Notes: generated by a model not told the origin, from the letters alone. Numbered from the stretch's first letter, positions 5,918-62,360 are shown. The stretch: 64,000 nt of DNA from Escherichia coli (GCF_001677475.2 NZ_CP015229.1); one strand, 5' to 3'. Translations and numbers: made by a program.

Positions 5918-5934
5918 ATTGCTCTAATTAGAAC
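5918..5934. promoter_or_regulatory. C1 operator-like site after repL
   Basis: attgctctaattagaac. Confidence 0.5.
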
Positions 5935-6082
5935 TATACATACTTTCAACACTTCTAGTTTGCCATGAGGCAAACTCATAGGCGTCTTGGTAAGAGGACA
6001 CAGTTGCCAAAACTGGACGTCCCATTATTGCAATTAATAAACAACTAACGGACAATTCTACCTAACAATAAGTGGAGTTAAC

Positions 6083-6787
6083 ATGTTGAACCGAAGAACA
6101 TTTAATGTATTCTGCGATGAATCCTGTCACCTACTAAATGATCATAATAAAGTCATGGTATTGGGTGCGCTTTGGTGTCCAGGCACTATCACAAAAAAAA
6201 TTGCTAGAGACATCAAGGAATTAAAATTAAAACACAATCTAAAACCTGATTTCGAAATCAAGTGGACTAAAGTATCTGCGTCCAAAGTTGAATTTTACTT
6301 AGATGTCGTAGATTACTTCTTCAGCAACCCAGCATTGCGCTTTAGAGGTGTTGTTGTTCCTGATAAAGAGCAACTGGACCATGCTCGATTCCATCAAGAT
6401 CATAATACTTTCTATTATAAGATGTTTTTTTATGTCTTAAAAAACATAATAGAAAGTAACAACACATACAATATCTACCTAGATATAAAAGATACTTTAG
6501 GTATTGAAAAAATTGAGAAATTAAGAGGGGTTCTTCACAATGATCGCTATGATTACAATCATGAGTCGATAAACAGAATTCAACATATACGATCTCATGA
6601 AGTGCAACAATTGCAGCTAACGGATCTTTTCATTGGTGCGTTAGGCTACGTTCATCGAGGAATGAATAGCAACGCGGGAAAAATCCAAGTCATAAACAGG
6701 ATAAAATCACATACAAACAGGGAGTTACTAAAAAGCACTCTTCCAACAGAAAGTAAATTTAATATTTTCGTGTGGGAGGCTCGCTGA
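6083..6787 (+). CDS. hypothetical protein, DUF3800-like (N-terminal CDES motif, C-terminal QLQLTDLF motif)
   Basis: 234 aa ORF, aagtggag RBS; strongly AT-rich compared with flanking phage genes. Confidence 0.55.
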   Translation: MLNRRTFNVFCDESCHLLNDHNKVMVLGALWCPGTITKKIARDIKELKLKHNLKPDFEIKWTKVSASKVEFYLDVVDYFFSNPALRFRGVVVPDKEQLDHARFHQDHNTFYYKMFFYVLKNIIESNNTYNIYLDIKDTLGIEKIEKLRGVLHNDRYDYNHESINRIQHIRSHEVQQLQLTDLFIGALGYVHRGMNSNAGKIQVINRIKSHTNRELLKSTLPTESKFNIFVWEAR

Positions 6788-7251
6788 TGCTTCAAATGCC
6801 AGATTTATTGTACTTCAATGGAAGTTGGCAAGAGTATATAGACGATGTATATGATGTTGTCAGAGAAGATATTTTAATCTCTAATATAACGTTTAAGGGT
6901 CTCCCTGTTCGATTACGTTATTCACCGGAATATGATGGGAAAGAGTTCGGATTTTGGCATTTAGTATCAGAGGGAAAAATAGAAGAAGAACGTATACCCG
7001 ATCTTGAACGGTGCAAACGAATTCGCTGGATCGCGCATATGATAAGGAATTATAACCATTGCGATATATCATGTTGGTCTGAAAGACGAGGACCAACTGA
7101 AGAGTGGGTAATCTGGAATGAGTATGAAAACTACGTTGTTGTGCTATCCGCACGTAGAGACTATTGGCTTCTCAAAACAGCCTATGTTGTAACCTATGAC
7201 AGTAAAATCAGAACACTCAAACAAAGCAGAAAAAGAGCACTTGGGACATAA
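6787..7251 (+). CDS. hypothetical protein, partner of the DUF3800-like gene
   Basis: ATG at 6787 overlaps upstream stop (TGATG), ggagg RBS 7 nt upstream; 154 aa; AT-rich; Cys/His cluster CKRIRWIAHMIRNYNHCDISC. Confidence 0.5.
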   Translation: MLQMPDLLYFNGSWQEYIDDVYDVVREDILISNITFKGLPVRLRYSPEYDGKEFGFWHLVSEGKIEEERIPDLERCKRIRWIAHMIRNYNHCDISCWSERRGPTEEWVIWNEYENYVVVLSARRDYWLLKTAYVVTYDSKIRTLKQSRKRALGT

Positions 7252-7416
7252 AAAGCTGAACCCGACACATATTACTATGTATCGGGTTCGATCGCTCTTT
7301 CTACACATGGTAGATGAGTAAGGCAAATCTAACCGATCTACTTTAGCTTTTCAATAGCTAGCTATAACTTTCCGCACATATTCTTCTGATAATTACGGGA
7401 GAGCGGTTGGGTTTTC

Positions 7417-7713
7417 TCATGCTTTTCTGCGCAGAGAAGCACACTTATTCAGCAATAATAAATGCAATTCTTTGTTATCACTAAGTATTTCTACACACCA
7501 ATATCGTAACGTGTTCACTTCAAGTGTAGCCAGCACCTTATGTCGAAAAGCCCCCTCCCCTACACATAACGATGCCTGACATTCTGCTAAGGCACATAAC
7601 CATGTATTGGCATCATAGAGAATCCAATAATGCTCATCTGAAATAGTTATGCATCCAATTATTTCGAATCTTCTTTCTATCGTCTCAGGAGAGTATGAAA
7701 AATCAATTTCCAT
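7417..7713 (-). CDS. hypothetical protein
   Basis: 98 aa ORF between hairpin 7261-7290 and terminator 7752-7782; weak. Confidence 0.3.
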   Translation of the reverse strand: MEIDFSYSPETIERRFEIIGCITISDEHYWILYDANTWLCALAECQASLCVGEGAFRHKVLATLEVNTLRYWCVEILSDNKELHLLLLNKCASLRRKA

Positions 7714-7751
7714 AACATGCTCAAAATCTATCTATACCGGCATAATTTAAG

Positions 7752-7782
7752 CACAAAAAAGCTCCCGTAGGAGCTTTAAAAT
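7752..7782 (-). terminator. intrinsic terminator ending the structural operon
   Basis: aaagctcc-cgta-ggagcttt hairpin with flanking A/T runs. Confidence 0.5.
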
Positions 7783-34239: not shown

Positions 34240-34330
34240 TTATGTTGCGCTTTACTGAGGAAGAGTATTAGACGTCAACTAGTTTTGCCGACTCGCGCCA
34301 ACTATACTGGCCGCACCCTTCAGGGCGACA

Positions 34331-35086
34331 TCAAGTCGCGCTTGTTACTGCCTTCGCTGTCTTTTTCCTGTAGCTTTCCCCTTTCAGTTCGAACATATAT
34401 CCGTGATGGAGCAGCCTGTCTGCCGCAGCCACCGCCATAGTCTCATCCACGAAGATGCTGCCCCACATGCTGAACGGATGGTTACTGGTTATCACCAGGC
34501 TCCCACGTTCATAGCGATGCGCTATTAACTCGAACAGCACACCCGTTTCGGCACTATCGCGTTTGACATAGCCAAGATCATCCACCACTATCACCCGGTA
34601 GCGATCCAGTTTCAGTAGCAGCTCATTCAGTTTCAACTGAGCTCTGGCTTTACGTAGTTCCTGCAACAGCTCTCCTGCGCTGTAGAACCGGGCCCGGTAG
34701 CCCTGACCTACTACGCCATCCACGATCGCTGCCGCCAGATGGCTTTTCCCCAACCCGCTGGCTCCGAACAGCAGAACGTTTTCTCCTGCATCAACCCAGT
34801 CTGTCGTTTCACAGAGTTGCCGGAACTGAGCTCCATTCAGTTCCGGCACCTGACTGAAGTCGTATTCGCTCAGCGTTTTGGCAACTGGCAACCGGGCCTC
34901 CTTTTTATAACGACGCAGTTTTTCACTCTCGCGCCACAGGAGTTCTTCATTGCATAGCGTCAGAAGATAGCGCGATGGTGTCCAGCCTTCTGCCAGCGCT
35001 CGTTTTTCCAGAGCGTGCCATTCAGCTCCAACTCGTGTCAGGCGTAGTTTACGCAGGCTATGTTCAAGGTGATGGATATTGCTCAC
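34331..35086 (-). CDS. istB: IS21-family helper ATPase IstB
   Basis: 251 aa; Walker A GASGLGKSHLAAA. Confidence 0.85.
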   Translation of the reverse strand: MSNIHHLEHSLRKLRLTRVGAEWHALEKRALAEGWTPSRYLLTLCNEELLWRESEKLRRYKKEARLPVAKTLSEYDFSQVPELNGAQFRQLCETTDWVDAGENVLLFGASGLGKSHLAAAIVDGVVGQGYRARFYSAGELLQELRKARAQLKLNELLLKLDRYRVIVVDDLGYVKRDSAETGVLFELIAHRYERGSLVITSNHPFSMWGSIFVDETMAVAAADRLLHHGYMFELKGESYRKKTAKAVTSAT

Positions 35087-36635
35087 TGCGAACCTCCCTT
35101 GCCACGCAGTAGTTGCTCATAACTGCTCAGGTTATGCTGTATCACATTGACTACCGGCAACGCCTTTTCTTTTATACCCAGGAAGCGCATCAGCCGGTGC
35201 AGATCCACGTTTCCCGGGGTATTCAGCATCTGCTCCATACCTTTTGCCACGACTGAGATATCGTCGTATCCTGCAGCCAGTTTCAGGGCATGTACCATCA
35301 GCCTTCCTGCCATATCGGGCTCCAGATGATTACATAAGCGACGCCACAGCCTCCGCCATTCATCGTCCGGCAGGATGTCATTTCTCAGCGTTGCATGGCA
35401 GAACGCACCGGGCTTTTTTGCCAGACTGTCGATCACATGTCGGAAGTCGATACGACGGGCCCGCGTCTTCCCTTTTTCTGGTCTGACGCGAGGGCAGCTC
35501 ATGACCTCGCTGCTGCCAACGTAACAGCTCAGACGATCGTCCCATAACCTGACCCGTAACAGTTGACCTACAAGCCGGGAAGGTACGCTGTAGACGACGT
35601 GCTTCACATTGATGGTACTGCTGCGACTAACCCTCACAGTCAGCTCATCATAGTCAGCACTGCGACGAAGCGGCAGCGGTTTCAGATGAAGACGTTCTTC
35701 CTTGACCAGATCCTGATTGTTACGGTTGTGCCGCATAACCTGCTGAGTGATGAAGGCCTGATATTCTTCTATGGTGCTGAAGTCGTTACTGCCCCGCAGT
35801 ATCAGCGCCTGACAGATACGCCTTTTCAGATGTCCGTGGGCACTTTCAACCGAGCCATTTTCGTGGCCCCGACCGGCATTATTGTGTACGCCCTGCATTC
35901 CGTAGTGCTGACAGAGAGTAGCATAACGCTCAGTCAGCTCGCGGCGTCCATTCCGTAGTGCTGACAGAGAGTAGCATAACGCTCAGTCAGCTCGCGGCGT
36001 CCATCTTCGCCCTGTTGTTTCCATGCTGCCCTCAGGCTGTCCGTTTTATGTTCTACCGGCACTCCGCCCAGTTGTCCGAGGGCTTCCTGCAGGCCTTCAG
36101 CCAGAGCAGAGAAGCTCTCACCACCCAGAACAACCCGCATCCAGCTCCAGTGGCTCCATTCCAGACGGAAGTGATACAACTTATGCGCCAACAACTTACC
36201 GGCGATGGTGACAACTACACCTTTCAGTTCAGTAAAGTCCGACAGGCCTCGCAGGCCGGGCTGATGTTGCTGGCGGAACATGACCTCCTGCTCTGTACCA
36301 TACTGTAGTTTCCATTCGCGAACCCGCCGTTGCATTGTTCTTCGAAGGCTGTTGGGGTACTGGCCGGGATATTTATCCTGTAGCATCTCCAGTAGAGTTG
36401 TTGGTGTCAGAGCCGGCCTCTCTTTCAACAGAGGAACAAGCATGCTGTCCCACACAGCTTCCAGAGGATCTTTGCGTGTGCGCCAGTGCCGAACACTGTT
36501 TTTTGCCCACTCTCCTTTTTCGATCCGACGACCAGAACGGACTGAGATACCAGCCTTCATGGCCGAGATATGCTGAGTTATACCTTTCTTACGCTGAGTC
36601 ATATAGTAACTGACCTGAGAAGTATTGAGCGTCAC
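35083..36635 (-). pseudogene. istA: IS21-family transposase IstA, frameshifted by a 53-bp tandem duplication
   Basis: N-terminal HTH ORF (36635-35934) and C-terminal catalytic ORF (35898-35083) separated by an exact 53-bp direct duplication. Confidence 0.75.
35896..36004. repeat. exact 53-bp tandem duplication inside istA
   Basis: 35899-35951 identical to 35952-36004 (tccgtagtgctgacagagagtagcataacgctcagtcagctcgcggcgtccat). Confidence 0.9.
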
Positions 36636-37452
36636 GCCATTTCCTGTTGGATCATGTAAATGACACTCAGGTTACAAAACCGGCCAGAATAATCGGCGCC
36701 AGGCGGACTGAGTTATTGTCGTCTCATAGAAGAGTTTCAGGCTTTTAGTGAGCGTCGAAATAAGGGGCGGTCCAGGCCAAAAACCAAAAAGGATCCATTC
36801 TTATCGCTTGCGCCGGTAAAAGAAGTTTCTCCACATGCGAAGGCACTTGCAGCACTGGCAAAGAACCCAGACCTGCGCGACGGAAATTGCGAGCACTTCG
36901 AGCAGGTTTTCATTTTTGATTACTTCGAACGCAAGCACCCTGACATCTATGAGCTGTTGCATGCAACGCCTAACGGAGGGAAACGTTCAAAAGCAACCGC
37001 CGGGAAAATGAAGGCTGAAGGGCAGAAAAAAGGTTATCCGGACATGAGTCTCGATAAAGCATGCGGTATTTATCACGGCATGCGAATTGAGCTTAAAGAA
37101 CCAAATGGTAAAGCCCCGACGAAAGAGCAGATCGCCTGGATGCGCAGGCTTAGAGAGGAAGGTTACTACGTCGTTCTTGCGTATGGTGCAGAACAAGCGA
37201 TAACCGCCATCCTGGAATACATGAGCCTTAAAAAGGGTGAGGCTATTGAGCATGTATTGAACGGTGACAAGTGGTTGTACGCTACATGAAATAATAAATT
37301 AATTAGTGCATATGTGTTCTTTGATACAGCGCACATTAACATCGGGAGAATAATCGTGTCATCCAAGGCTAATTATGAATCGCTGGCATCGATCATGCCG
37401 CGTAATGAACAGGAAGCAGATGCTGTAGTGGACCCGGTAATCGCTGAAATGA

Positions 37453-42348: not shown

Positions 42349-43077
42349 ATGAAAGGCGAAGTGAAAGAGCGCGGCATGATTTTCAACGATGAGATGGTCC
42401 GGGCCATCCTCGAAGGAAGGAAAACGCAGACGCGGCGGATAATGAAAAATCAGCCTGCGGAAGTTGGTCCAGAAGCACCAGTGATGGTTAGAAAAATTGG
42501 TGCAGGTTTTCAGTGGTACGGGGCTGATGGTGTAAGCAGTGTTTTCAATTGCCCCTTTGGTATCGTCGGCGATCGAATTTGGGTTCGTGAAACATGGGCG
42601 ATATTAGGCAATGAGGATGGTTGCAGTGTGGACTGGAACGACAACCCTTGTCGTGGCGATGAGAAGAACGCAGCAAGGATTTATCGGGCCAGTTGTGAGC
42701 AAAAGCCTGGTGATTACGGCTTATGGTCGATACCCGATGATGCCGACTGGAAACCTCACACTGTGAATGAAAAGTTTGATGGTGGGTGGCGTCCATCAAT
42801 TCACATGCCGCGATGGGCATCACGCATTCTGTTGGAAATTACCAACGTGCGCGTTGAGCGGTTGAACGATATCAGCGAATGCGATGCAGGGGCTGAGGGC
42901 GTTCCGCCTGCTGGAAGTTTACTTCCTGATTACCCGGGAACATTCCTTACTCCCAATGGGGACTTCGCAATGGCCAAGGTTGCGTTCCAGCGTCTGTGGG
43001 AGTCCATCTACGGCGAAGAAAGCTGGAACGCTAATCCCTGGGTGTGGGTAATCGAGTTTAAGCGCATTCAGGAATAA
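42349..43077 (+). CDS. ASCH/PUA-like domain protein (start may be internal Met)
   Basis: 242 aa; MIFNDEMVRAILEGRKTQTRR motif typical of phage ASCH proteins as recalled. Confidence 0.45.
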   Translation: MKGEVKERGMIFNDEMVRAILEGRKTQTRRIMKNQPAEVGPEAPVMVRKIGAGFQWYGADGVSSVFNCPFGIVGDRIWVRETWAILGNEDGCSVDWNDNPCRGDEKNAARIYRASCEQKPGDYGLWSIPDDADWKPHTVNEKFDGGWRPSIHMPRWASRILLEITNVRVERLNDISECDAGAEGVPPAGSLLPDYPGTFLTPNGDFAMAKVAFQRLWESIYGEESWNANPWVWVIEFKRIQE

Positions 43078-43080
43078 ACC

Positions 43081-43353
43081 GTGAGTATGCATCAAGTCGT
43101 CAGCTTTTCAGGTGGACGAACATCGGCTTATCTCGTTCATCTGATGGAAGCACAGCGAAAAGCTGGCGCTAGCGTCCATTTCATTTTTATGGATAAGTCT
43201 TACGGCTGGACTGAGTGCGATACCTTCGAAAGGTATTACGATTGGTCGAGAAACAAATGGTGGGCAGTCACTGACGATGGGGAAGAATCAGCATCGAAAC
43301 TAACTCACTGGATGCCACTACCAGAACCGCCACAGGAGTCGAAGAGTGAATAA
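43081..43353 (+). CDS. hypothetical protein
   Basis: 90 aa ORF in co-directional run. Confidence 0.35.
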   Translation: MSMHQVVSFSGGRTSAYLVHLMEAQRKAGASVHFIFMDKSYGWTECDTFERYYDWSRNKWWAVTDDGEESASKLTHWMPLPEPPQESKSE

Positions 43354-43552
43354 AGCAGAGTTATTTCAGAAAATATCGGCTCTCGCGACTGAATGCCACG
43401 CTATAGCATCTGAGCTTGATGTTGGCGATGAACGAACCGAGATGTTCGAAATATACAGTGTGCTGCGCAATCTCTGTCGGCGTGGCTACGCCACTCAAGT
43501 AGGGCGAATGACTAACCCACTACTCTCATCCTGTGATGAGGATGACGAATGA
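43346..43552 (+). CDS. hypothetical protein
   Basis: 68 aa ORF overlapping neighbours. Confidence 0.35.
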   Translation: MNKAELFQKISALATECHAIASELDVGDERTEMFEIYSVLRNLCRRGYATQVGRMTNPLLSSCDEDDE

Positions 43553-44214
43553 TGCATAAATCAGTAGCCGGTGAGTTTCAGAAGGAAGTCGATAATACTA
43601 CCGTTCTATTGGACGATATTTTAAGCATTCTCGCGCTGCTTGAGGCTGGCGATTGGTCAGAACATTGCACTAAAACAGAGCTAGGCGGTCGGCTTGAAAG
43701 AGAGATTACACGGCTTGTTGGTGATGCGCAGGAAGCTACAGTCACTAGTTATGAGTTAATCGCTGAAGCCTGGCGTTTGATGGATGGACAAGATCCTAAA
43801 ACAAGCGATTGGCATAGCAAGGCTTCGAAGTATTTAAATTCCAATAGGGTAGAAAAAGTTGATGATGTGAAACCGAAGCCAGTAGACCACGGTTTCCGCG
43901 ATAACTGCGAATGCTCTAGTTGCCAGACCACGGCCCGTATTTGTTCCGAATTGACAGATAAGTCCAGCCTAATCTACGAAGTTAATGTAGGCGGTAATAC
44001 ATGGGTCGAATGCACAAGAGCTGCATACGTAAGAGCAAAAGACAAGGGTGAATTAACCAGAGTTGTTACCAATCACCCAAATAATGAGCTTAAAGATCAC
44101 CAGATTCGAGAACTGGTGAACGAGTTGAGGGATATTGCGGTTCAGTACCACGGAACGCAGCAATTGCGGGAGAAGATTGCCAGAGCAGTGAACAACTCAG
44201 TCCGTAAAAAATAA
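43549..44214 (+). CDS. hypothetical protein
   Basis: 221 aa ORF. Confidence 0.45.
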   Translation: MMHKSVAGEFQKEVDNTTVLLDDILSILALLEAGDWSEHCTKTELGGRLEREITRLVGDAQEATVTSYELIAEAWRLMDGQDPKTSDWHSKASKYLNSNRVEKVDDVKPKPVDHGFRDNCECSSCQTTARICSELTDKSSLIYEVNVGGNTWVECTRAAYVRAKDKGELTRVVTNHPNNELKDHQIRELVNELRDIAVQYHGTQQLREKIARAVNNSVRKK

Positions 44215-44655
44215 GCAATAGTACGATAAAGAGGCCCCATGCTCTTGATGGGGCCTGTAGCAACTAGCGTTATGGACGCTGGTTTACGTACTCAATGATC
44301 GCTTTGATAATCGCGAACATCGGCGGCACGATTTTGAACAGTAAGTTAACCATAACAGGTCTCACTTAGTTTTATCGCGCCTAGCTGCAAATACCTTTGG
44401 GCTTGCCTTTGCAGTTGCAATATCTGTAGTCGCCAGATACTTACGGCACGATTTCGAGTTAAGGTAAGGTTTTAGAGTCACCAAAAACCTGGACTTAAAT
44501 CTTCTTTGAGAACAACGATGTTTAGTAAATGGTCATTATTACCTGGTATGACCACTCAACGTTTCTTGATGAATCCAGTACATTCGGTTAATCTTAATTC
44601 AGTCGCCAGATACTTATGGCTCAGGAACAGAGCCGCAAACTCTGTTTCCTCTTAA

Positions 44656-44688
44656 AAAGCCCAGCCTAGTCAACTGGGCTTTTTAATG
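44656..44688 (+). terminator. intrinsic terminator
   Basis: aaaaagcccag-cctagtcaa-ctgggcttttt. Confidence 0.55.
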
Positions 44689-44981
44689 TCTATTTTTAAC
44701 CCAATGAACCTTCAATACCGCAACATCAGTGTCTTGCGAATTAAGATAGTGTGTATAGGTTATACATGCAAGTGCATAACTCTGTGGATAACTCAGGAAG
44801 GAAAAAGTAGCTTCCGCGCAATTTAGGCCAGACAAGGCTTTCGCAAAAGTCAACGGAGAGAAAAAATTTGTTAAAAATAACGTTTGTTGGAATTGTATAT
44901 ATTTATGCCTTTCAATAGTTAGCATCTTATTAACATCTTTTTTAAGAGATAGAGTTCAAAAATATATAGCTTCAACATATA

Positions 44982-44997
44982 CCGTATGTATATACAG
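44982..44997. promoter_or_regulatory. LexA box-like site upstream of humD (one mismatch)
   Basis: ccgtatgtatatacag = CTGT-N8-ACAG with CCGT left half, about 20 bp before humD start. Confidence 0.45.
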
Positions 44998-45015
44998 TAT
45001 TAAGAGGCGAGTATT

Positions 45016-50640: not shown

Positions 50641-50658
50641 ATTTGCTCTAATAAATTG
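50641..50658. promoter_or_regulatory. C1 operator immediately after pacB
   Basis: atttgctctaataaattg. Confidence 0.6.
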
Positions 50659-50734
50659 TGTTTTTTAACTACCGATGTTACATTGAACCTGACCTCTTGC
50701 GCCTTGAGGCATTTTCGGTTTATGCTGATCAGGC

Positions 50735-50811
50735 ACCTCATTAAAACGGGTGCCGGGATTGGCCTCCCGCTTAAGTCTAAGGCGATACAGACGCCGCTCG
50801 CGTCTTTTTTT
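50735..50811 (+). ncRNA. second c4-type antisense RNA candidate with different loop; ends approximate
   Basis: hairpin cggga-ttggcc-tcccg (50754-50769) then gacgc-cgctc-gcgtc + T7 (50790-50811); loop complementary to ggccaa at 50895-50900. Confidence 0.4.
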
Positions 50812-50976
50812 GTATCGGCGTACACGCACACCTCTACAATGGTGGGCTGTATGGGGCTACCTTCGGGTAGGCTGGTTACCTTGGACGCCAGTAAGGCCAA
50901 CTCCGTACAGTCCACCGCCAGCAAGATTGGTCTCTTCTGCGGTGGTTACATACCAACGTCTAAGGAGGCTGCCATT

Positions 50977-51198
50977 ATGGCTACTACCCCTACCCCAGCT
51001 CACCCTGAATTCATCTGGCGCTTTTACTCCTGCCAGAAACGTCACTATCACTTCGTTATCGCACCAACAGAAGATGAGGCACGTTCTCAGCTTCCGGATG
51101 CTCCCTGTATTTTCTCCGCCCGTTTTTCTACCGATTTGCGCAATTCTCTCAGTTACTGGTGCCCCCCTGTAAACGCTTGTGCTCAGGAGGGACTATGA
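50977..51198 (+). CDS. Icd-like small protein, paralog of 2813-3034
   Basis: 73 aa MATTPTPAHPEFIWRFYSCQKRHYHF..., taaggagg RBS, stop overlaps next ATG. Confidence 0.65.
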   Translation: MATTPTPAHPEFIWRFYSCQKRHYHFVIAPTEDEARSQLPDAPCIFSARFSTDLRNSLSYWCPPVNACAQEGL

Positions 51199-52310
51199 GA
51201 ACGTCATTAGTCACCCGTGAAGAGATGATCGAGGCAATTGAACAGCACACTGCTTGTATCAGTACCAGGGATATACCAGGCGTTATAGCCAACTACTTCA
51301 TGATCACCAAACAACTTTACCGGAGAAAGGACAAGAACGCGGTTCACCGCATCCTGCTGTCTGATATCCGCGAATACCTGCTCGAACAGGGGCATCTGAA
51401 TTACGCAACCGTCGCAGCCGAAACACGCAAGGAGGCACACAGAATGAAAGCAACTAACGTTAAATCAGAAAAAGTTCATGCACCTTCAGTTCAGGAGTCA
51501 GAGCTGGTGGTTGTTCAGAATCAGTCTGATGAAATTCCCGTTCTGGAATGGCTGGGAGTGCGTGTAGTGACAACCAAGATCCTTGCTAAGGGGTATGGGA
51601 CCGATGCGGATAACATCAAGAAGAACTTTTCCCGTAATGCTGAACGTTTTTGTGAAGGCAAGCATTTCTATAAAGTTATTGGAGATGATTTGAACAATTT
51701 GCGGGTGACTTTAAGTAACTCACAAAATCCCATCTCTCCTAAAGCCCGCTCACTCATCCTCTGGACGGAACGAGGAGCTGCCCGTCACGCAAAAATGCTC
51801 GAAACAGATCAGGCATGGGCATTCTTTGAAAAACTGGAAGACAGCTACTTCCGACAAAAAGAACAGCAACCGATCGCAATCCCCCAGACGCTTCCAGAAG
51901 CTCTGCGCCTGGCTGCCGAGCTGGCTGAACAAAAGCAACTTCTGGAACAGAAAACCCACCAGCTAAATCAGCAGCTGGTGGCCGCAGCCCCTAAAGTCGA
52001 TTTTGCCGACCGGGTATCAGTGGCTAAGGGGATCCTGATTGGGAATTTTGCAAAGGTTGTTGGACTTAAGCAAAATGCGCTGTTTGCCTGGTTACGGGAG
52101 AACGGCATCCTGATTGCGTCCGGCGGACGTAAAAATGTACCGTTTCAGCAGTACATAAACGCCGGATATTTCACAGTGAGAGAAGTGGTGCTGGATGATG
52201 AAGATGGCTATCAGATACGGCTGACGCCTCAATTAACGGGGAAAGGCCAACAGTGGTTGACGCGTAAACTGCTCGATGCTGGCTTGTTAAAACCGGTGGC
52301 GGCTGAATAA
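51195..52310 (+). CDS. antirepressor-like protein (Ant N-terminus, Bro-N-like middle, KilAC C-terminus)
   Basis: 371 aa from ATG 51195 (ORF track starts earlier at 51159); N- and C-terminal blocks shared with Ant1. Confidence 0.7.
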   Translation: MRTSLVTREEMIEAIEQHTACISTRDIPGVIANYFMITKQLYRRKDKNAVHRILLSDIREYLLEQGHLNYATVAAETRKEAHRMKATNVKSEKVHAPSVQESELVVVQNQSDEIPVLEWLGVRVVTTKILAKGYGTDADNIKKNFSRNAERFCEGKHFYKVIGDDLNNLRVTLSNSQNPISPKARSLILWTERGAARHAKMLETDQAWAFFEKLEDSYFRQKEQQPIAIPQTLPEALRLAAELAEQKQLLEQKTHQLNQQLVAAAPKVDFADRVSVAKGILIGNFAKVVGLKQNALFAWLRENGILIASGGRKNVPFQQYINAGYFTVREVVLDDEDGYQIRLTPQLTGKGQQWLTRKLLDAGLLKPVAAE

Positions 52311-52316
52311 TGGAAG

Positions 52317-52340
52317 AATGCCCGGTTGATGCCGGGCATA
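52317..52340. terminator. bidirectional terminator between ant-like gene and c1
   Basis: atgcccgg-ttgat-gccgggcat. Confidence 0.55.
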
Positions 52341-52342
52341 AT

Positions 52343-53194
52343 TTATTGCGCGCTTTCGGGGTTGTCGTTTACTGGCTGCCCCTTCTTAGTTTTACGGCTG
52401 CGCGTAACTGATGCGGCTGACTTAACCTTTTTCTCTTCGCGAGTGATGGCAATTTGTTTTTTTACATTTTCAATATCTGCCAGGCGATATATTTTTGCTT
52501 GCGGCCAGCGGTCGCAGATGATCGGTTCTATGGAGTCATAAAGGCTAAATTTTGCTTTTTCGAATTCACCGTTGATGATAATTCCATCACGGAGAGTTTC
52601 ATCGCAGATAAACACGCCACACAGTGGCACATGGTAACTAACTGATTTACCATCATTGTAGTTAGGGCTACTGGAAATGTAGTGGACGCGCAGCATTGTT
52701 TCGCTAAAGCCGTGTACGCGCATACGGAATTTTTCATCCTCTGGGTACTGCTTCATTAGCTCTTTTGTTGCTTCCAGGTTCTCTATGTATTTCGCACTGT
52801 GCTCATTGATCCCCGCGCTTTTTTGGATGCGAATGTCCTTATCAATCAGATGAATAATGCGGCCAGCGGTCATGTTGACGCTGTTCACAGCTTCTGTCTG
52901 ATAAGTCGTAACCTTACGTACACCGCGAAGGATGTTAGGCACAGGATATAAAATAGTCTTTGGGATATTGAGGTCTGGGTACTGTTCCAGTTCCCGCGCC
53001 ATTAAAGTCCATTTATCAATTTCAGCCTGAATGCTGTCTGTTTCTTTGAACGGTAGAACGACAACCGGGCGTACAGGACGACCGTCGCTGGCGGCATCAA
53101 CGTGTTGGGCGCGTGCAACAGCTTTTTTTAGAAAGAGATCCCTGAAGCTGACGAACTCCTGGTACAGTTGTTCGCCGTAGACATAATTTATCAT
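52343..53194 (-). CDS. c1: C1 primary immunity repressor
   Basis: 283 aa; length and sequence match P1 C1 as recalled; C1 operator matches across window. Confidence 0.9.
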   Translation of the reverse strand: MINYVYGEQLYQEFVSFRDLFLKKAVARAQHVDAASDGRPVRPVVVLPFKETDSIQAEIDKWTLMARELEQYPDLNIPKTILYPVPNILRGVRKVTTYQTEAVNSVNMTAGRIIHLIDKDIRIQKSAGINEHSAKYIENLEATKELMKQYPEDEKFRMRVHGFSETMLRVHYISSSPNYNDGKSVSYHVPLCGVFICDETLRDGIIINGEFEKAKFSLYDSIEPIICDRWPQAKIYRLADIENVKKQIAITREEKKVKSAASVTRSRKTKKGQPVNDNPESAQ

Positions 53195-54359: not shown

Positions 54360-54755
54360 ATGTTTAATAGCCTGACGGATGCCAAGGTAAACGCCTTACT
54401 TAAGGACGCAAAACAAAAAGCTGCTAACCCTGGAACGAGTGAAAATGAACGTGCTATGGCCGTTGCAATTTGGGAGTTAGCAGAAGAAGTAAAGCGAAAC
54501 CGCATGCAGTACACTCGGGTTTACCAGCAATTTGATGGTGCAAGCTGGAAAGATATCGAAGAGGCTGAATATTCAGCATGCAAAGAAGAAAAAAAGACTG
54601 TTCGGATTTTGCATGAAGCAGCAACTCCAATCACTGTAGAAATCCCCGATCACAGATATTTCGAGAACGATGATCTACCTGGGGATGTGATTCGAATTAT
54701 TGATGAGATACTTCATGAACAAGGCTTAACTGTTAAAATTACGCATAATAAATGA
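54360..54755 (+). CDS. hypothetical protein, stop overlaps cre start
   Basis: 131 aa; ATGA overlap with cre ATG at 54752. Confidence 0.45.
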   Translation: MFNSLTDAKVNALLKDAKQKAANPGTSENERAMAVAIWELAEEVKRNRMQYTRVYQQFDGASWKDIEEAEYSACKEEKKTVRILHEAATPITVEIPDHRYFENDDLPGDVIRIIDEILHEQGLTVKITHNK

Positions 54756-57114: not shown

Positions 57115-57783
57115 GTGGCTTTTCTTTTTGTAGGGGGAGCTATGGATAAGAAAATATGCGTTGTTTCGATGAACGTCGGCAAACCGGCGTCAATGACTGC
57201 TGCATGGATCAACAACGAGCTGATAATGGCTGAGCGGACCAGCTACCCTGAACGCCGCCGCGACATGGAACTCCAGCTGCTGCGCGAATTGCGAGAAAAA
57301 GAGGAAAAGGGTTTTATCGTGCTGGTGGAAGAGGAAAACAGCTTTATTACTGGTCGAGTTGGCCAGCGTGTAAGGTTGCGCGATCCCTTCATGAACGGCA
57401 GGCCGGTACTGATTGAAGCAATGCAGATTTACAAGGAGCTGGAACGCCAGAAAGCGATCAAGTTACCACGCAAGGAGTCCGGCAAGTACATTCTCCATCA
57501 AAGCATCTTCGATTCCGAACACGACAAAAAAGGCGATGAATTTTTCAACATCAACTGGAGCGAAATAACCACAGAGCACGTTCTGACGCTACTATGTTGC
57601 TTTGCAACGGAATACAACAACGTGGTGAGCGCGCACTACATTCAGGCAATGGCTGGTAGGATTAATACGCAGCGTGAGCCCTCGCTGATAGAGCCATTCA
57701 TCAATATTATTAATGCTACTCAACGAATGGGAGAAACACGTGTGCCGCAAGGCTTACTCACAGGTAAATATGATTACCTTTAA
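57115..57783 (+). CDS. hypothetical protein (P1 mat position; start may be internal)
   Basis: 222 aa ORF following ref. Confidence 0.45.
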   Translation: MAFLFVGGAMDKKICVVSMNVGKPASMTAAWINNELIMAERTSYPERRRDMELQLLRELREKEEKGFIVLVEEENSFITGRVGQRVRLRDPFMNGRPVLIEAMQIYKELERQKAIKLPRKESGKYILHQSIFDSEHDKKGDEFFNINWSEITTEHVLTLLCCFATEYNNVVSAHYIQAMAGRINTQREPSLIEPFINIINATQRMGETRVPQGLLTGKYDYL

Positions 57784-58267
57784 TTTCAAACTTATTACAC
57801 CAAGCAGCTAATTACAAATTACTACTTAAGGTAACCAAAAATTATTATTTGCAAAACACATAAAAAACAAAAACAAAACAATAAAAAACACAAATTAACA
57901 TCAACACCAAATGAAGACATTTTACTAACCAAGCCTCAGCATCTATTACCAGTAGATATAAAGGTGATAAATGGAGGAATTAATAGCACGCATATTAAGC
58001 TGGTTGTTTCATAATCAATAATTGAATAATAATTCAATGCGTCTCCATGATTTTTATGTAACGATGCACATTAATCGCATATATTTGTTGAATGATTTTC
58101 ATTTGAAATTTATTTAAAGTGAATAATTGATTTATTCAACCTCCTTATTTATTATTTTTCCGATTTTGTGCAGCGAAATGCATGAATATTTGCGAGAACA
58201 TAATCACACAGTAAACTAAAACATCTGTTATTATAAATCCGGATAATGTATAAACTCGAGGTTATCT

Positions 58268-61200
58268 ATGTCACTTTCTGTTTATAATAATAAAAAAAAT
58301 AGCTCTTCAGGGGGGAACTCTCCTCGCTTGACCCTACTGGCAGCTATAATCGGCGCATTATTTTCAAATGCTTACGCTTCAACAACTGCTATTAAAATTG
58401 ATAATGATGTTCAAGTTAATAAAGATAACCTCGATATTAATACGGGCAGTAATACAGGAAGTAATGGATATGCGATCTCTGTCACAAATTCAGGTGAACT
58501 AACTACCGAAGGTACAGTGACGTTATCTACAGAAGGTGATAAGGCAAACGGAGTTAATATATCCAGTGGGTCTAAAATTAACTCTCAAGGTGGGATTACA
58601 ATAACCACAAAAGGCAAAAACGCCTCTGGCATTTCACTTGATAATAATTCTTCAATGACTATCGCTAACGGTATGTCAATTACAACAAGTGGGATAAACG
58701 CTACAGGGATTAATGTTGACAAATCTTCACTAACTGTTGAACAAGGTGATATTAACACATCTGGTGTAAATGCTAGTGGTGTTTCTATTTTAAATGGAGG
58801 CCAAGCCAGTTTAAATAAAGTTAACATTACCACATCTGGAGATAATGCCAGAGGTATTGTTAGCTCTGGCATAAATAGCAAAATAGTAATTAGCGACTCA
58901 ACCATTACCACTCTGGGGGATAAAAAACCATCACAAGCATGGGGAGCTCGTGGCATATCTGCCGAAAACAACGGTTATGTTTCACTAACAAATACGCAGA
59001 TTAAAACTGATGGAACAGGGGCTTGGGGAGTATCTGCATCGTCAGCTGGCTCAGCTGAATTAGCTGATGTTCATATTTCCACTTCAGGCCAAAATGGCTA
59101 TGGTTTACGTGCAGATGGCAATAACTCTAGTATATCTGTATCTAAAGGACTCCAGGTAACCACTTCTGGCAAACAAGCTCATGCCGTAACTGCCTCTAAT
59201 AATGGGAATATAAATCTTGGAGTAAATGCATCTCTTGAAACATCAGGGACGCAGGCTAATACCATCCATATCACCGGTGGTAATGGTGGTATAATAACGG
59301 GTGATAGTATCTCAATAAAAACAAATGGCACATCAGCCAAAGGTATATATGTTACGGCTTTAAATCCCTCAGACTCAGCACCTGATTCACGCGTAGAGCT
59401 GACGGGAACATCAACAATCGCCACATTAGGTGATCAGTCAATAGGTGTGTGGGGGCATGGTAAAGTAGCTGATATTAGCTTCGAGCAAATAGCTATTAAT
59501 ACAGCCGGTACTGACTCATACGGTATAAATGCACAAAATGAAGCCACTGTTAATGCCCATACAGCCCAGATTATTACTAAGGGGCTAAACTCATATGGAG
59601 CAACAGCAAATTCAGCTGCAAAAATTACACTTGGTTCTGGTTCATCGATTACAACAAGCGGTGATTATGCTCATGGAATATGGGTCAGTGATGACAATAC
59701 AGTTATTAGTGGCAATAATGCATCCATTCATGTATCAGGAAAAGAGGCTGACTCTGTAGTCGCTGCCAATAATGCAAAAGTTGAGCTTACCCAAGAGAAT
59801 GGGGTGATGATTAGCGAAACTAGATATAACTTTAATGCTAATGGTGGTGCTATTTCCGCCACGTTAGATGGCAGCCAAATAAAGAATAACGGCACATTCA
59901 TCTTCTCAACCAGTAATGATGCCGGTGTGGGAGGGAACGTTGATGTTACAGTCAAGAATACTTCCTTTAATGGCGATATTCGCGCTGATAGTAACAGTAT
60001 TGCCAATCTTTCATTAGAAAATTCCAACTGGACTGGAACCGCGTATAATGGTGGCATTGTTAATTTAGCTAAAAACAGCATCTGGAATATGGTTAGCGAT
60101 TCGGATGTTGCTCATCTTAATAATAATGGCTCTATATATTTGGGCAGCGATGCAAAAAACACTTTAACAATTAATGGTGATTATACTGGCGAAAATGGCT
60201 ATATCTACTTTTCAGGCGTTCTTGGTGACGACACATCTCCAATCGATAAGTTGGTTGTAAAAGGAAATACAGAGGGTAAAACCTTTGTTTCCGTAAACAA
60301 CGTTGGTGGTATTGGGGCACAAACACTCAATGGCATCAACATTATCCAGGTTGATGGTCAATCTAACGGTGACTTTGTACAAGTTGGCCGAATTGCGGCT
60401 GGTGCTTATGATTACACTCTTGGGCGGGGGCAAGGCGATAAAAATGGCAACTGGTACCTAACTAGTGGCAAACAACCTGAGGATCCAACTCCGAACCCGG
60501 ACCCGGAGCCAAATCCGACCCCAACACCAGGTGACAATGATCTTCGCCCAGAAGCTGGTAGCTATACGGCAAACATTGCTGCTGCAAATACTATGTTCGT
60601 GACTCGCCTACACGAACGTCAGGGGCAAATGCAGTATACCGATGTGATTACCGGTGAATTGAAAACTACAAGCATGTGGATGCGTCATGAGGGTGGACAC
60701 AATCGCTGGCGCGACGGAAGCAACCAGTTAAAAACACAAAGCAACCGTTATGTTATGCAACTGGGCGGCGATATAGCACAGTGGGGTTGGAATAAAACGG
60801 ATCGCTGGCATCTTGGCTTAATGGCCGGATACGGTAATGACCACAATAATACAGAATCTGTGCGCACAGGATATCGTTCAAAAGGTAGTGTGAATGGTTA
60901 CAGCACTGGGCTGTATGCCACCTGGTATGCCAATGATGAAACACATAACGGGGCTTACCTAGACTCTTGGGCACAGTACAGCTGGTTTGATAACTATGTT
61001 AAAGGTGATGGATTGCAGAGTGAATCCTGGAAATCAAAAGGACTTACTGCATCACTGGAAACTGGTTATACCTGGAAGGCTGGTGAGTTTACGGGCAGCC
61101 AAGGTGGTTTGAATGAGTGGTATGTCCAGCCTCAGGCTCAGGTCATCTGGATGGGTGTTAAAGCGGACGAACATCGCGAAAGCAACGGTACCCGTGTTGA

Positions 61201-61522
61201 AAGCACCGGAGATGGTAATGTCCGTACCCGTCTGGGCGTGAAAACATGGATTAAAAGCCACAGTCGTATAGATGAAGGCAAATCCCGGGAATTCAGCCCA
61301 TTTGTGGAAGTGAACTGGCTGCATAACACCCGTGATTTTGGTACTCGTATGAATGGTGTGACGGTACATCAGGACGGTGCCCGTAATATCGGAGAAATAA
61401 AAACCGGTGTTGAGGGGCAGATAAATTCCAGACTGAACCTGTGGGGGAATGTAGGTGTTCAAGTCGGTGACAAAGGGTATAACGACACATCTGCAATGTT
61501 GGGTGTGAAGTATACCTTCTGA
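58268..61522 (+). CDS. type Va autotransporter (adhesin-like passenger plus C-terminal beta-barrel)
   Basis: 1084 aa; extended signal peptide; repetitive G/N/S/T-rich beta-helix-like passenger; Pro-rich linker PNPDPEPNPTPTPG; C-terminus ends KYTF; AT-rich upstream region. Confidence 0.85.
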   Translation: MSLSVYNNKKNSSSGGNSPRLTLLAAIIGALFSNAYASTTAIKIDNDVQVNKDNLDINTGSNTGSNGYAISVTNSGELTTEGTVTLSTEGDKANGVNISSGSKINSQGGITITTKGKNASGISLDNNSSMTIANGMSITTSGINATGINVDKSSLTVEQGDINTSGVNASGVSILNGGQASLNKVNITTSGDNARGIVSSGINSKIVISDSTITTLGDKKPSQAWGARGISAENNGYVSLTNTQIKTDGTGAWGVSASSAGSAELADVHISTSGQNGYGLRADGNNSSISVSKGLQVTTSGKQAHAVTASNNGNINLGVNASLETSGTQANTIHITGGNGGIITGDSISIKTNGTSAKGIYVTALNPSDSAPDSRVELTGTSTIATLGDQSIGVWGHGKVADISFEQIAINTAGTDSYGINAQNEATVNAHTAQIITKGLNSYGATANSAAKITLGSGSSITTSGDYAHGIWVSDDNTVISGNNASIHVSGKEADSVVAANNAKVELTQENGVMISETRYNFNANGGAISATLDGSQIKNNGTFIFSTSNDAGVGGNVDVTVKNTSFNGDIRADSNSIANLSLENSNWTGTAYNGGIVNLAKNSIWNMVSDSDVAHLNNNGSIYLGSDAKNTLTINGDYTGENGYIYFSGVLGDDTSPIDKLVVKGNTEGKTFVSVNNVGGIGAQTLNGINIIQVDGQSNGDFVQVGRIAAGAYDYTLGRGQGDKNGNWYLTSGKQPEDPTPNPDPEPNPTPTPGDNDLRPEAGSYTANIAAANTMFVTRLHERQGQMQYTDVITGELKTTSMWMRHEGGHNRWRDGSNQLKTQSNRYVMQLGGDIAQWGWNKTDRWHLGLMAGYGNDHNNTESVRTGYRSKGSVNGYSTGLYATWYANDETHNGAYLDSWAQYSWFDNYVKGDGLQSESWKSKGLTASLETGYTWKAGEFTGSQGGLNEWYVQPQAQVIWMGVKADEHRESNGTRVESTGDGNVRTRLGVKTWIKSHSRIDEGKSREFSPFVEVNWLHNTRDFGTRMNGVTVHQDGARNIGEIKTGVEGQINSRLNLWGNVGVQVGDKGYNDTSAMLGVKYTF

Positions 61523-61626
61523 ACTAAATAGCATCTAAGAACAAAGAGCAGAACCATGGATGGACTGCTCTTTACCATGACACCGATATTCCATTATTTC
61601 TATCTTTTGATATATATATTAACAAA

Positions 61627-61971
61627 ATGAATAATAAAAAAGAAACTTGTTATATAAAAGCACATATAGAAAGGCATGATATTACAGTTCATGTGTGGAT
61701 ATCTGCATCATTGACAGAAGCTGAATGCAGCGTACTTGAGTTATTATTAAAGGGATATAATATCACTCAGATATCAAAGTCCCGATTTCGCAGCATTAAA
61801 ACAGTTTCTTTTCAGAAATACAAAATATACAAAAAGTTAGGAATTCATAATGACATCACATTCTGGGTAGATATTTCATTATCCCCTTATGTGAGAATAA
61901 AGTTCTCCGGTAAAGATAGTACGTTCAAGAAATGTATATTACCATGTCCTAATTACATCTCGATGCAGTGA
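61627..61971 (+). CDS. small LuxR/GerE-type HTH protein
   Basis: 114 aa; LTEAECSVLELLLKGYNITQISK; AT-rich. Confidence 0.5.
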   Translation: MNNKKETCYIKAHIERHDITVHVWISASLTEAECSVLELLLKGYNITQISKSRFRSIKTVSFQKYKIYKKLGIHNDITFWVDISLSPYVRIKFSGKDSTFKKCILPCPNYISMQ

Positions 61972-62111
61972 TAACTGCACTCAAACAATATCTACCTATA
62001 CAATATAAATACTCCATGACCAAGAAACGCATGAAGATATGGAACTTCACAAGTTTGCTCTTCATGGAGTATGGCTATCAGAGGGGCCAGTAACCGCAAC
62101 CTTTAAGTATA

Positions 62112-62360
62112 TCAATCTATATTCAGGAGCAATGCATTATCTATGATGATTTGCTCCCATTCTTCGAATGCCCGGTCGCGGACGCCCTGGGGAACGCTGT
62201 TAGTTTTGAAATCGACGACCGTCCGCCATTTTCCGTCCGGACGGTACATCCGCAGAGCTTTACTTCCCCCTTCCCTGCGCACCTCAACGTTATGCTTATC
62301 AGCAAACTCTTGTAATGCTCGTAGCGTCCCATGCTTTACTGTGTAGTATCGCTTTTTCAA
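62112..62360 (-). CDS. small basic protein, possibly Lxc/Bof-like C1 co-repressor
   Basis: 82 aa; size as I recall for P1 Lxc; assignment by position only. Confidence 0.35.
   Translation of the reverse strand: MKKRYYTVKHGTLRALQEFADKHNVEVRREGGSKALRMYRPDGKWRTVVDFKTNSVPQGVRDRAFEEWEQIIIDNALLLNID

Follow-up and report, generated by a model that had tools for sequence, protein, structure and literature searches.

An autotransporter and a small regulator occupy the mat-lxc interval of a P1-type phage-plasmid

We analyzed a 64,000-nucleotide stretch of Escherichia coli DNA (GCF_001677475.2, NZ_CP015229.1; hereafter the window), which belongs to a P1-type (Punavirus) phage-plasmid and has flanks 95-97% identical to P1. 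Between mat and lxc-ulx-darB of this backbone lies a cassette of 4,464 bp (57657..62120, 40.0% GC). It contains an AT-rich non-coding region (57784..58267, + strand), a gene encoding a type Va autotransporter of 1084 aa (58268..61522, + strand), and a gene encoding a stand-alone GerE/LuxR-type regulator of 114 aa (61627..61971, + strand).

The limits of the cassette were determined with NC_005856 as the P1 reference for boundaries and annotation. Homology to P1 is lost after window position 57656 (P1 3341), which falls within the 3' end of mat, 127 bp before the end of the gene, and is regained at 62121 (P1 9759), at the extreme 3' end of lxc. The cassette takes the place of P1 3342-9758, a 6.4-kb segment comprising the tail of mat, the res gene, and a mod gene interrupted by the insertion sequence IS5. 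Searches with blastn against P1, RCS47, SJ46, and Ro157c2YLVW placed the loss of homology at 57651-57656 and its return at 62121, the latter being at 62111 for JL22. On the right-hand side, lxc, which encodes the modulator of C1 (62112..62360, - strand), is convergent with the cassette genes, and a spacer of 140 bp (61972..62111) separates its stop codon from the regulator gene. On the left-hand side, mat (maturation control; 57142..57783, + strand) is full length at 213 aa, with its last ~42 codons (57657-57783) inside the variable segment. In an alignment with Mat of P1, RCS47, SJ46, JL22, and Ro157c2YLVW, residues 1-169 were found to be 96-99% identical. The C-terminal tail shares 45-55% aa identity with P1 and RCS47, its synonymous divergence (dS) is saturated, and its length is kept. 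The tail is thus hypervariable among P1-like elements while the first 169 residues are conserved, which indicates that the variable locus starts within mat.

The original prediction, made from the sequence of the window, had proposed that the two genes replace the res/mod restriction system of P1 at a variable hotspot, and the alignment bears this out. The mat-lxc interval holds res/mod (EcoP1I) in P1 and P7, is empty in RCS47 (39 bp), and contains a RelA/SpoT-family gene in SJ46. The SJ46 gene matches PADLOC PDC-S33, and we assume it to be CapRel(SJ46), which has been described as a toxSAS system active against phages (PMC9712102). The interval encodes a 316-aa hypothetical protein in JL22, and a hypothetical protein and a helix-turn-helix (HTH) protein in Ro157c2YLVW. 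Because its content differs among P1 relatives in this way, mat-lxc is a real cargo hotspot. P1 Res and a reconstructed Mod gave no significant tblastn match in the 64-kb window, with ~34 kb of the element lying outside it. They also gave no significant match in the complete 98-kb relative CP056895.1, which likewise has the cassette between mat and lxc.

The two characterized occupants of the locus, EcoP1I and CapRel(SJ46), lie at the same place as the cassette, flanked by mat and lxc with their convergent 3' ends, and the backbone is >95% identical. Both are anti-phage defense systems, whereas the cassette autotransporter has no PADLOC defense match. If the cassette itself served in defense or superinfection exclusion, the passenger of the autotransporter would shield receptors or clump cells, and the regulator would turn flagella off or change surface glycans controlled by cyclic di-GMP (c-di-GMP), lowering the adsorption of competing phages. 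Besides the known occupants, JL22 gp7 shows a weak match in PADLOC to the candidate system PDC-S34, and PdeL, a relative of the regulator described below, is reported to set sensitivity to phage N4 via c-di-GMP (10.1101/2021.10.01.462762; PMC8669472). However, PADLOC 2.0 returned 0 matches for the autotransporter, and its sole match for the regulator was a weak 24-bit, HTH-level match to a CARF-HTH model. No known defense system has such a composition, and mat-lxc is also empty in RCS47, so occupancy of the site does not imply defense. A defensive role is suggested only by the neighborhood of the hotspot, and we regard it as quite unlikely.

Architecture of the autotransporter

The autotransporter gene is preceded by a GAGG Shine-Dalgarno sequence (58258-58261) and encodes a protein with the type Va layout that had been predicted. 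A putative signal peptide (aa 1-37, 58268-58378) with a predicted AYA/ST cleavage site is followed by a β-helix passenger (aa 38-732, 58379-60463), which includes an AC_1 autochaperone (PF18883; aa 612-718, 60101-60421; Pfam E 2.5e-27). A Pro-rich linker, QPEDPTPNPDPEPNPTPTPGDN (aa 736-757, 60473-60538), then leads to a pore helix (aa 761-775, 60548-60592) and a β-barrel (aa 800-1084, 60665-61519), all on the + strand. The Autotransporter β-domain of Pfam (PF03797) matched aa 803-1062 (E 8e-44), and the C-terminus reads LGVKYTF with a terminal aromatic residue. Both the linker and the KYTF ending named in the original prediction are therefore present. The NCBIfam model TIGR01414 scored 412 bits against a cut-off of 16, and the AIDA-I transport unit (PDB 4mee) was matched over aa 628-1084 with E 1e-95.

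The AlphaFold2 (AF2) model of the protein has a mean predicted local distance difference test score (pLDDT) of 85.9. In this model the passenger forms unbroken β rungs over aa 42-732 with pLDDT mostly >90, followed by a disordered linker, a pore helix at aa 761-775, and a barrel at aa 800-1083. Foldseek aligned the model to 4mee with a target-normalized TM-score of 0.96 and a root-mean-square deviation (rmsd) of 1.4, and to pertactin (1dab) with a target-normalized TM-score of 0.55; Ag43 was also a fold match. The passenger has no cysteines and a periodicity of ~26 aa (autocorrelation peak at 26 aa).

The description of the signal peptide as extended was not confirmed. Inspection of the sequence showed a long n-region with K9, K10, and R20, in which 20 aa precede the hydrophobic core, an h-region LTLLAAIIGALF, and the AYA/ST motif; AF2 gave a helix at aa 23-32 with low confidence. 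The extended signal peptide region (ESPR, PF13018) was not detected by Pfam at the N-terminus. It was detected in the Ag43-type proteins that neighbor a chromosomal homolog on contig L024, so such genes do yield ESPR matches.

Codons 9-16 of the gene contain an A8 run (58292-58299) and a G6 run (58310-58315), and the A run is absent in the CP056895 allele. These runs might allow slipped-strand on/off switching of the autotransporter gene. Starting 21 nt past its stop codon is a hairpin with a 9-bp stem (AAAGAGCAG ... CTGCTCTTT; 61543..61573, + strand) and no T-tract. It is a possible weak terminator or RNA end, and the terminator scan did not call it.

We compared the protein with known autotransporters. 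It shares with AIDA-I the classical type Va layout, the AC_1 autochaperone, the pore helix, the 12-strand barrel, and a β-helical passenger. It differs in that AIDA-I carries a 19-aa repeat, whereas the passenger of the cassette has the ~26-aa periodicity and lacks PF16168. The AIDA-I model of NCBIfam (NF033176) scored 305 bits against a cut-off of 1200, and the Aah/TibC heptosyltransferase linked to members of the AIDA-I/TibA family has no counterpart in the cassette. Judged by these sequence features, the protein is best placed among the classical type Va autotransporters, outside the self-associating autotransporter (SAAT)/AIDA-I family sensu stricto (AIDA-I, TibA, Ag43).

The nearest homologs outside P1-like elements are chromosomal autotransporters of E. 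coli (P0012/L024; C5, L009), which are full-length, uncharacterized, and 69-74% identical at the aa level. Each occupies the distal end of a CP4-type island and is preceded by CbtA/CbeA toxin-antitoxin and DUF5983 genes, and the C5 homolog shares part of the 5' leader of the cassette autotransporter. The C5 copy (L009 3163-7613) is split by an IS3-family element; contigs L024-L026 likewise carry chromosomal homologs. An ancestral pair of autotransporter and PdeL was considered for C5 and rejected: the EAL protein encoded beside the C5 autotransporter is not PdeL/LuxR-like at its N-terminus and gave no tblastn match.

A second P1-type element, phi456 (OR339795), also carries an AIDA-type autotransporter (L031 3853-7350, 1165 aa), 57% identical to the cassette protein over aa 631-1084. 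In phi456 the gene lies near pmgM-pmgP, bracketed by IS1 (InsB) and without a GerE partner, and res/mod is kept at mat-lxc. The barrel of the cassette protein also strongly matches PHROG 15824, labeled a tail fiber protein. This family was recognized as a mis-annotated autotransporter, and a tail function was rejected; phage GER2 carries the same mis-annotation, with such autotransporters labeled as tail fiber.

A PdeL/SrgD-like regulator recurs beside adhesin loci

The regulator gene begins 104 bp past the autotransporter stop codon and has 31.6% GC. The predicted 114-aa open reading frame (ORF) and its LuxR/GerE-type HTH were confirmed (Pfam GerE, PF00196; aa 28-76, E 3.6e-10), and the protein proved to be more specifically SrgD/PdeL-N-like than generic LuxR-type. 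Its best PDB sequence match is PdeL (YahA of E. coli K-12; 7pk5), at residues 4-82 with phmmer E 1e-15. The DNA-binding domain shared with PdeL reaches N-terminal of the HTH and includes the segment before it. With Salmonella SrgD the regulator is 49% identical over the HTH. We infer from these similarities that it belongs to a clade with SrgD and the N-terminal domain of PdeL. No EAL domain was found in the regulator by Pfam, and the protein stops at residue 114, with lxc 140 bp further on. Without this domain it would neither sense nor hydrolyze c-di-GMP and is not a PdeL ortholog.

The AF2 model of the regulator (pLDDT 83) consists of a β-hairpin, four GerE helices (aa 31-41, 46-53, 57-71, and 79-85), and a C-terminal strand. 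Its best Foldseek matches are RcsB DNA-binding domains (rmsd 1.1-1.6 Å over 50-58 aligned columns, 41-46% identity). PdeL (7pk5) is not among the best 50 matches, so the link to PdeL rests on sequence. In an alignment of 12 members of the regulator family, the motifs S-x-QK and ND-T are invariant. The former appears to include the DNA-binding lysine of PdeL, where K60A abolishes DNA binding (bioRxiv 10.1101/2021.10.01.462762), although the numbering of the PDB chain may be offset from that of native PdeL. Published work shows that the HTH of PdeL recognizes palindromic boxes, that PdeL antagonizes H-NS at an AT-rich promoter (bioRxiv 10.1101/2021.10.01.462762), and that PefI-SrgD repress flagellar class I expression (PMC3224193).

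Relatives of the regulator were found by tblastn in 523 plasmid records, including Salmonella virulence plasmids, where the gene is orf7/srgD of the pefI-srgC operon. A homolog with 66% identity lies directly downstream of a heptosyltransferase and a glycosylated AIDA-like autotransporter on an F-type plasmid (L018). Another, with 44% identity, is directly downstream of a chaperone-usher operon on an E. coli plasmid (L019). In Salmonella (L021), SrgD belongs to the operon located after the pef fimbrial genes, and in E. albertii a homolog with 68% identity is directly downstream of a Pef-like operon. One further relative lies close to an intimin-like gene, with the two on different strands. Among the contexts inspected, SrgD/PdeL-N-type regulators thus recur repeatedly beside adhesin loci.

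Like the cassette regulator, SrgD is a small stand-alone GerE/LuxR protein (116 aa) on a mobile element, encoded just downstream of an adhesin locus, the pef fimbrial operon. The likeness is confined to the HTH (aa 29-79). SrgD acts with PefI, whereas the cassette has no PefI-like gene, and the adhesin partner of SrgD is a chaperone-usher fimbria while that of the cassette is an autotransporter.

In E. albertii, a relic of the last 20 autotransporter codons (L014/L015 7832-7891), 80% identical to aa 1065-1084, was observed just upstream of the regulator homolog; both lie downstream of a Pef-like fimbrial/DsbA cluster. Similarity of the module to the E. albertii copy stops at 62059, within the spacer between the regulator gene and lxc. 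Because the 3'-end relic precedes the regulator, the autotransporter was deleted there and the autotransporter-regulator pair is the older unit in that species. On two metagenome contigs (L034/L035, 135-1414), the gene for a close relative of the regulator (124 aa, 58-65% identical) precedes a 32-aa ORF and a gene for a PdeL-type EAL protein. The arrangement resembles a PdeL paralog that has been split or frameshifted.

These relationships are also compatible with a regulator that is active cargo acting on the host, with the autotransporter independently regulated. In this alternative, a PdeL domain lacking EAL would occupy PdeL/RcsB-type boxes or form mixed dimers and thereby uncouple c-di-GMP and motility decisions. 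The similarity to PdeL, which extends past the HTH into the N-terminal β-hairpin, the relatives that form the N-terminal piece of split PdeL-like genes before a PdeL-type EAL domain, and the Foldseek matches to RcsB, among them RcsB on the flhDC promoter, all point in this direction, as does the association of the regulator with more than one kind of adhesin. With K-12 PdeL, however, it shares just ~47% identity over 79 residues, so the two may not recognize the same operators, and dimerization of PdeL needs both HTH and EAL (bioRxiv 10.1101/2021.10.01.462762), so a lone HTH may bind weakly. The linkage to the autotransporter is moreover kept in four P1-like alleles and in the E. albertii relic, which argues for a functional tie. 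We consider a regulator directed at the host alone unlikely.

Diverged alleles, rarity and selection

An identical cassette was found on about nine assembly contigs (including L011, L012, and L027-L029), always between mat and lxc-ulx-darB. Diverged alleles are present at the same site in CP056895 (88.5% nt identity), L013, and L033, and at least four diverged cassette alleles can be distinguished by sequence at the mat-lxc site of P1-like elements. The full-length autotransporter alleles are intact in the window (1084 aa), CP056895 (1087 aa), and L013 (1074 aa). The ratio of nonsynonymous to synonymous divergence (dN/dS) was 0.19-0.23 for the autotransporter and 0.11-0.32 for the regulator, with dS up to 1.1-1.5 for the latter, showing that both cassette genes are under purifying selection. 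Since the ORF is intact in three alleles with such a dN/dS, the autotransporter is not a pseudogene.

Identity between alleles varied strongly along the locus. The backbone is 95-99% identical at the nt level, the region upstream of the autotransporter gene 62-80%, and the region of the regulator 73-77%. Within the autotransporter, aa 331-600 of the passenger are 78-82% identical and the barrel 98-99% identical at the aa level. The length of the linker varies among alleles, and the divergence is mosaic. A conserved barrel combined with a variable passenger resembles the pattern of surface antigens and is expected of an exposed, selected protein.

We searched for the cassette at ≥80% coverage in 5,426 complete E. 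coli genomes and found it in none, while ~480 plasmids in this set match short backbone flanks; PLSDB contains one record with the cassette. Given the diverged alleles and its absence from these genomes, the module is old enough for diversification in the lineage, yet rare.

Rarity and low GC (27.5% in the upstream region and 31.6% in the regulator gene) would also fit silent hitch-hiking DNA, that is, a horizontally acquired, H-NS-silenced cassette that brings no benefit and is kept since mat-lxc tolerates insertions. Neutral cargo of this kind would not be expected to keep its ORFs intact in all alleles observed, with dN/dS of 0.1-0.3, at the regulator divergence reached here, nor to combine a conserved barrel with a variable passenger as exposed surface proteins under selection do. 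We therefore judge this explanation to be very unlikely.

The upstream region and candidate control sites

The original prediction had noted a very AT-rich region of ~480 bp ahead of the autotransporter gene. It measures 484 bp and has 27.5% GC, compared with 47.1% for the whole window. We presume it to be the regulatory region of the module, and it is likely a target of H-NS. Conserved islands are present in it despite the divergence between alleles, and a blastn search in 'distant' mode with 57657-58267 as the query found no match in the complete E. coli genomes.

Two short, perfect inverted repeats stand out as candidate operators, each conserved among alleles although the DNA around them diverges. 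The first, a perfect repeat ATTGAAT-N4-ATTCAAT (58021..58038), is a candidate operator that occurs once in the window compared with 0.05 matches expected by chance. Its arms are maintained in three alleles, with one arm mismatch in L013, whereas the 4-nt spacer differs between them. The second, TGAATAA-N5-TTATTCA (58120-58138, + strand), lies in a block conserved in three alleles and overlaps the -35 element of a sigma-70-like promoter, TTGATT-17-TATTAT (58127-58155, + strand), which is a consensus match only. In the upstream region, 10 promoter-like sites were found against a shuffle expectation of 15.7, so there is no excess. Neither the promoter nor the terminator scan was enriched over shuffles, and both serve as pointers only.

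Control of the cassette by the phage repressor C1 or by late phage functions was considered and not supported: P1 C1 operators and the LPmat -22 motif gave just chance-level matches in the cassette (4-mismatch or 1-mismatch). With no C1 operator and no P1 late-promoter element, the cassette is probably not under direct phage control.

A proposed module for lysogen surface properties

We favor the reading that the cassette is accessory cargo in the mat-lxc hotspot of a P1-type phage-plasmid, a module that supplies a surface protein and brings its own regulator, and give this reading a probability of about 0.6. In this reading the autotransporter would be exported by Sec, its AIDA-I-type barrel would be placed in the outer membrane by the β-barrel assembly machinery (BAM), and the β-helix passenger of ~700 aa would be shown on the surface of the lysogen. 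Most AIDA-type β-helix passengers mediate adhesion, autoaggregation, or biofilm formation, and the passenger of the cassette would most likely do the same. Expression would depend on the module's own AT-rich region upstream of the autotransporter gene, which H-NS probably silences, and not on C1 or late phage control. The regulator, by analogy, may couple expression of the adhesin to other surface programs. It may repress flagellar genes, as PefI-SrgD do at flhDC, or it may lift H-NS silencing from the module itself, in the way that PdeL acts on the pdeL promoter. A role in adhesin-linked motility control or H-NS relief is suggested because SrgD/PdeL-N relatives sit downstream of other adhesin loci.

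Several observations weigh against this reading. On the side of the autotransporter, the 19-aa AIDA repeats (PF16168) were not detected in the passenger, and no named autotransporter model of NCBIfam reached its cut-off, all being far below. An Aah/TibC-type heptosyltransferase gave no tblastn match in the window with the M8-plasmid heptosyltransferase as the query, and the cassette has no space for another gene. A search for the nearest characterized autotransporter, which the original prediction had called for, returned homologs and an AIDA-I-like transport unit. For the passenger it found no characterized close relative, the best matches being unnamed E. coli proteins with 49-84% identity. 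Adhesion or aggregation is therefore deduced from architecture alone, not from a characterized ortholog, and the proposal of lysogenic-conversion cargo for adhesion or biofilm formation draws on domain architecture and the modeled fold. On the side of the regulator, its gene has no obvious Shine-Dalgarno sequence and is skipped by some gene callers. A PefI-like gene is not present, as the cassette contains no further sense-strand ORF of ≥50 aa and leaves gaps of only 104 and 140 bp around the regulator gene. The chromosomal autotransporter homologs have no adjacent GerE regulator, and the position of the E. albertii regulator by fimbrial genes may be secondary, given the autotransporter relic. 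Neither the 58021-58038 nor the 58120-58138 palindrome was found at other loci with related regulators, so an operator shared across the family is not supported. Finally, the known occupants of the mat-lxc hotspot are defense systems, not adhesins.

A more far-reaching idea joins the surface protein to the defensive setting of the hotspot. The β-helix protein and a PdeL-derived domain without a c-di-GMP sensor would together form a 'surface reprogramming' unit that locks the lysogen in an aggregated, non-motile, and receptor-masked state, protected from superinfecting phages. If true, this would be a defense-by-lifestyle strategy unlike any catalogued defense system, but we hold it to be highly improbable.

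The components of the favored accessory module are all of known kinds. The autotransporter is type Va, the regulator is of the SrgD/PdeL-N type, and the module as a whole is a phage 'moron' at a variable site that was already known. As moron cargo the module is a credible yet conceptually ordinary phage-borne case. In literature searches that paired phage-plasmids or P1-like elements with autotransporters, hotspots, or defense, we found no paper on an autotransporter at the P1 mat-lxc locus. Virulence factors make up ~0.23% of phage-plasmid genes (PMC10879196), and virulence- or adhesion-type genes are rare in these elements. P1-type elements move between cells by infection and are maintained as plasmids, and they could disseminate an adhesin along with the regulator that accompanies it, provided that the module is expressed. 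More broadly, mobile elements repeatedly have a stand-alone SrgD/PdeL-N-type regulator immediately downstream of adhesin loci that are unrelated to one another. This recurring placement offers a testable hypothesis for how acquired adhesins could be wired into motility and H-NS control of the host.

Other variable features of the element

Upstream of the cassette, the gene order is cra, an extra ORF of 131 aa, cre, c8, ref, and mat. The original prediction had placed cre, cra, and ref ahead of the mat-position gene. These genes are indeed there, and c8 and the 131-aa ORF had been omitted. The extra ORF (54360-54755, + strand) lies between cra and cre and overlaps the start codon of cre, in a stretch that in P1 contains the promoters of cre. 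It is absent in P1, RCS47, JL22, and CP056895, and homology skips from P1 424 to 433. The encoded protein matches phrog_20152 (function unknown) end to end and gave no NCBIfam or PADLOC match.

Comparison with CP056895 also delimited segments of the window with no megablast match >300 bp, namely 1-2843, 5928-7776, 20820-21841, 25600-26082, 34266-36729, 42440-45015, and 50645-52344. These are further variable regions of the element, and the last of them is near the c1/immunity region.

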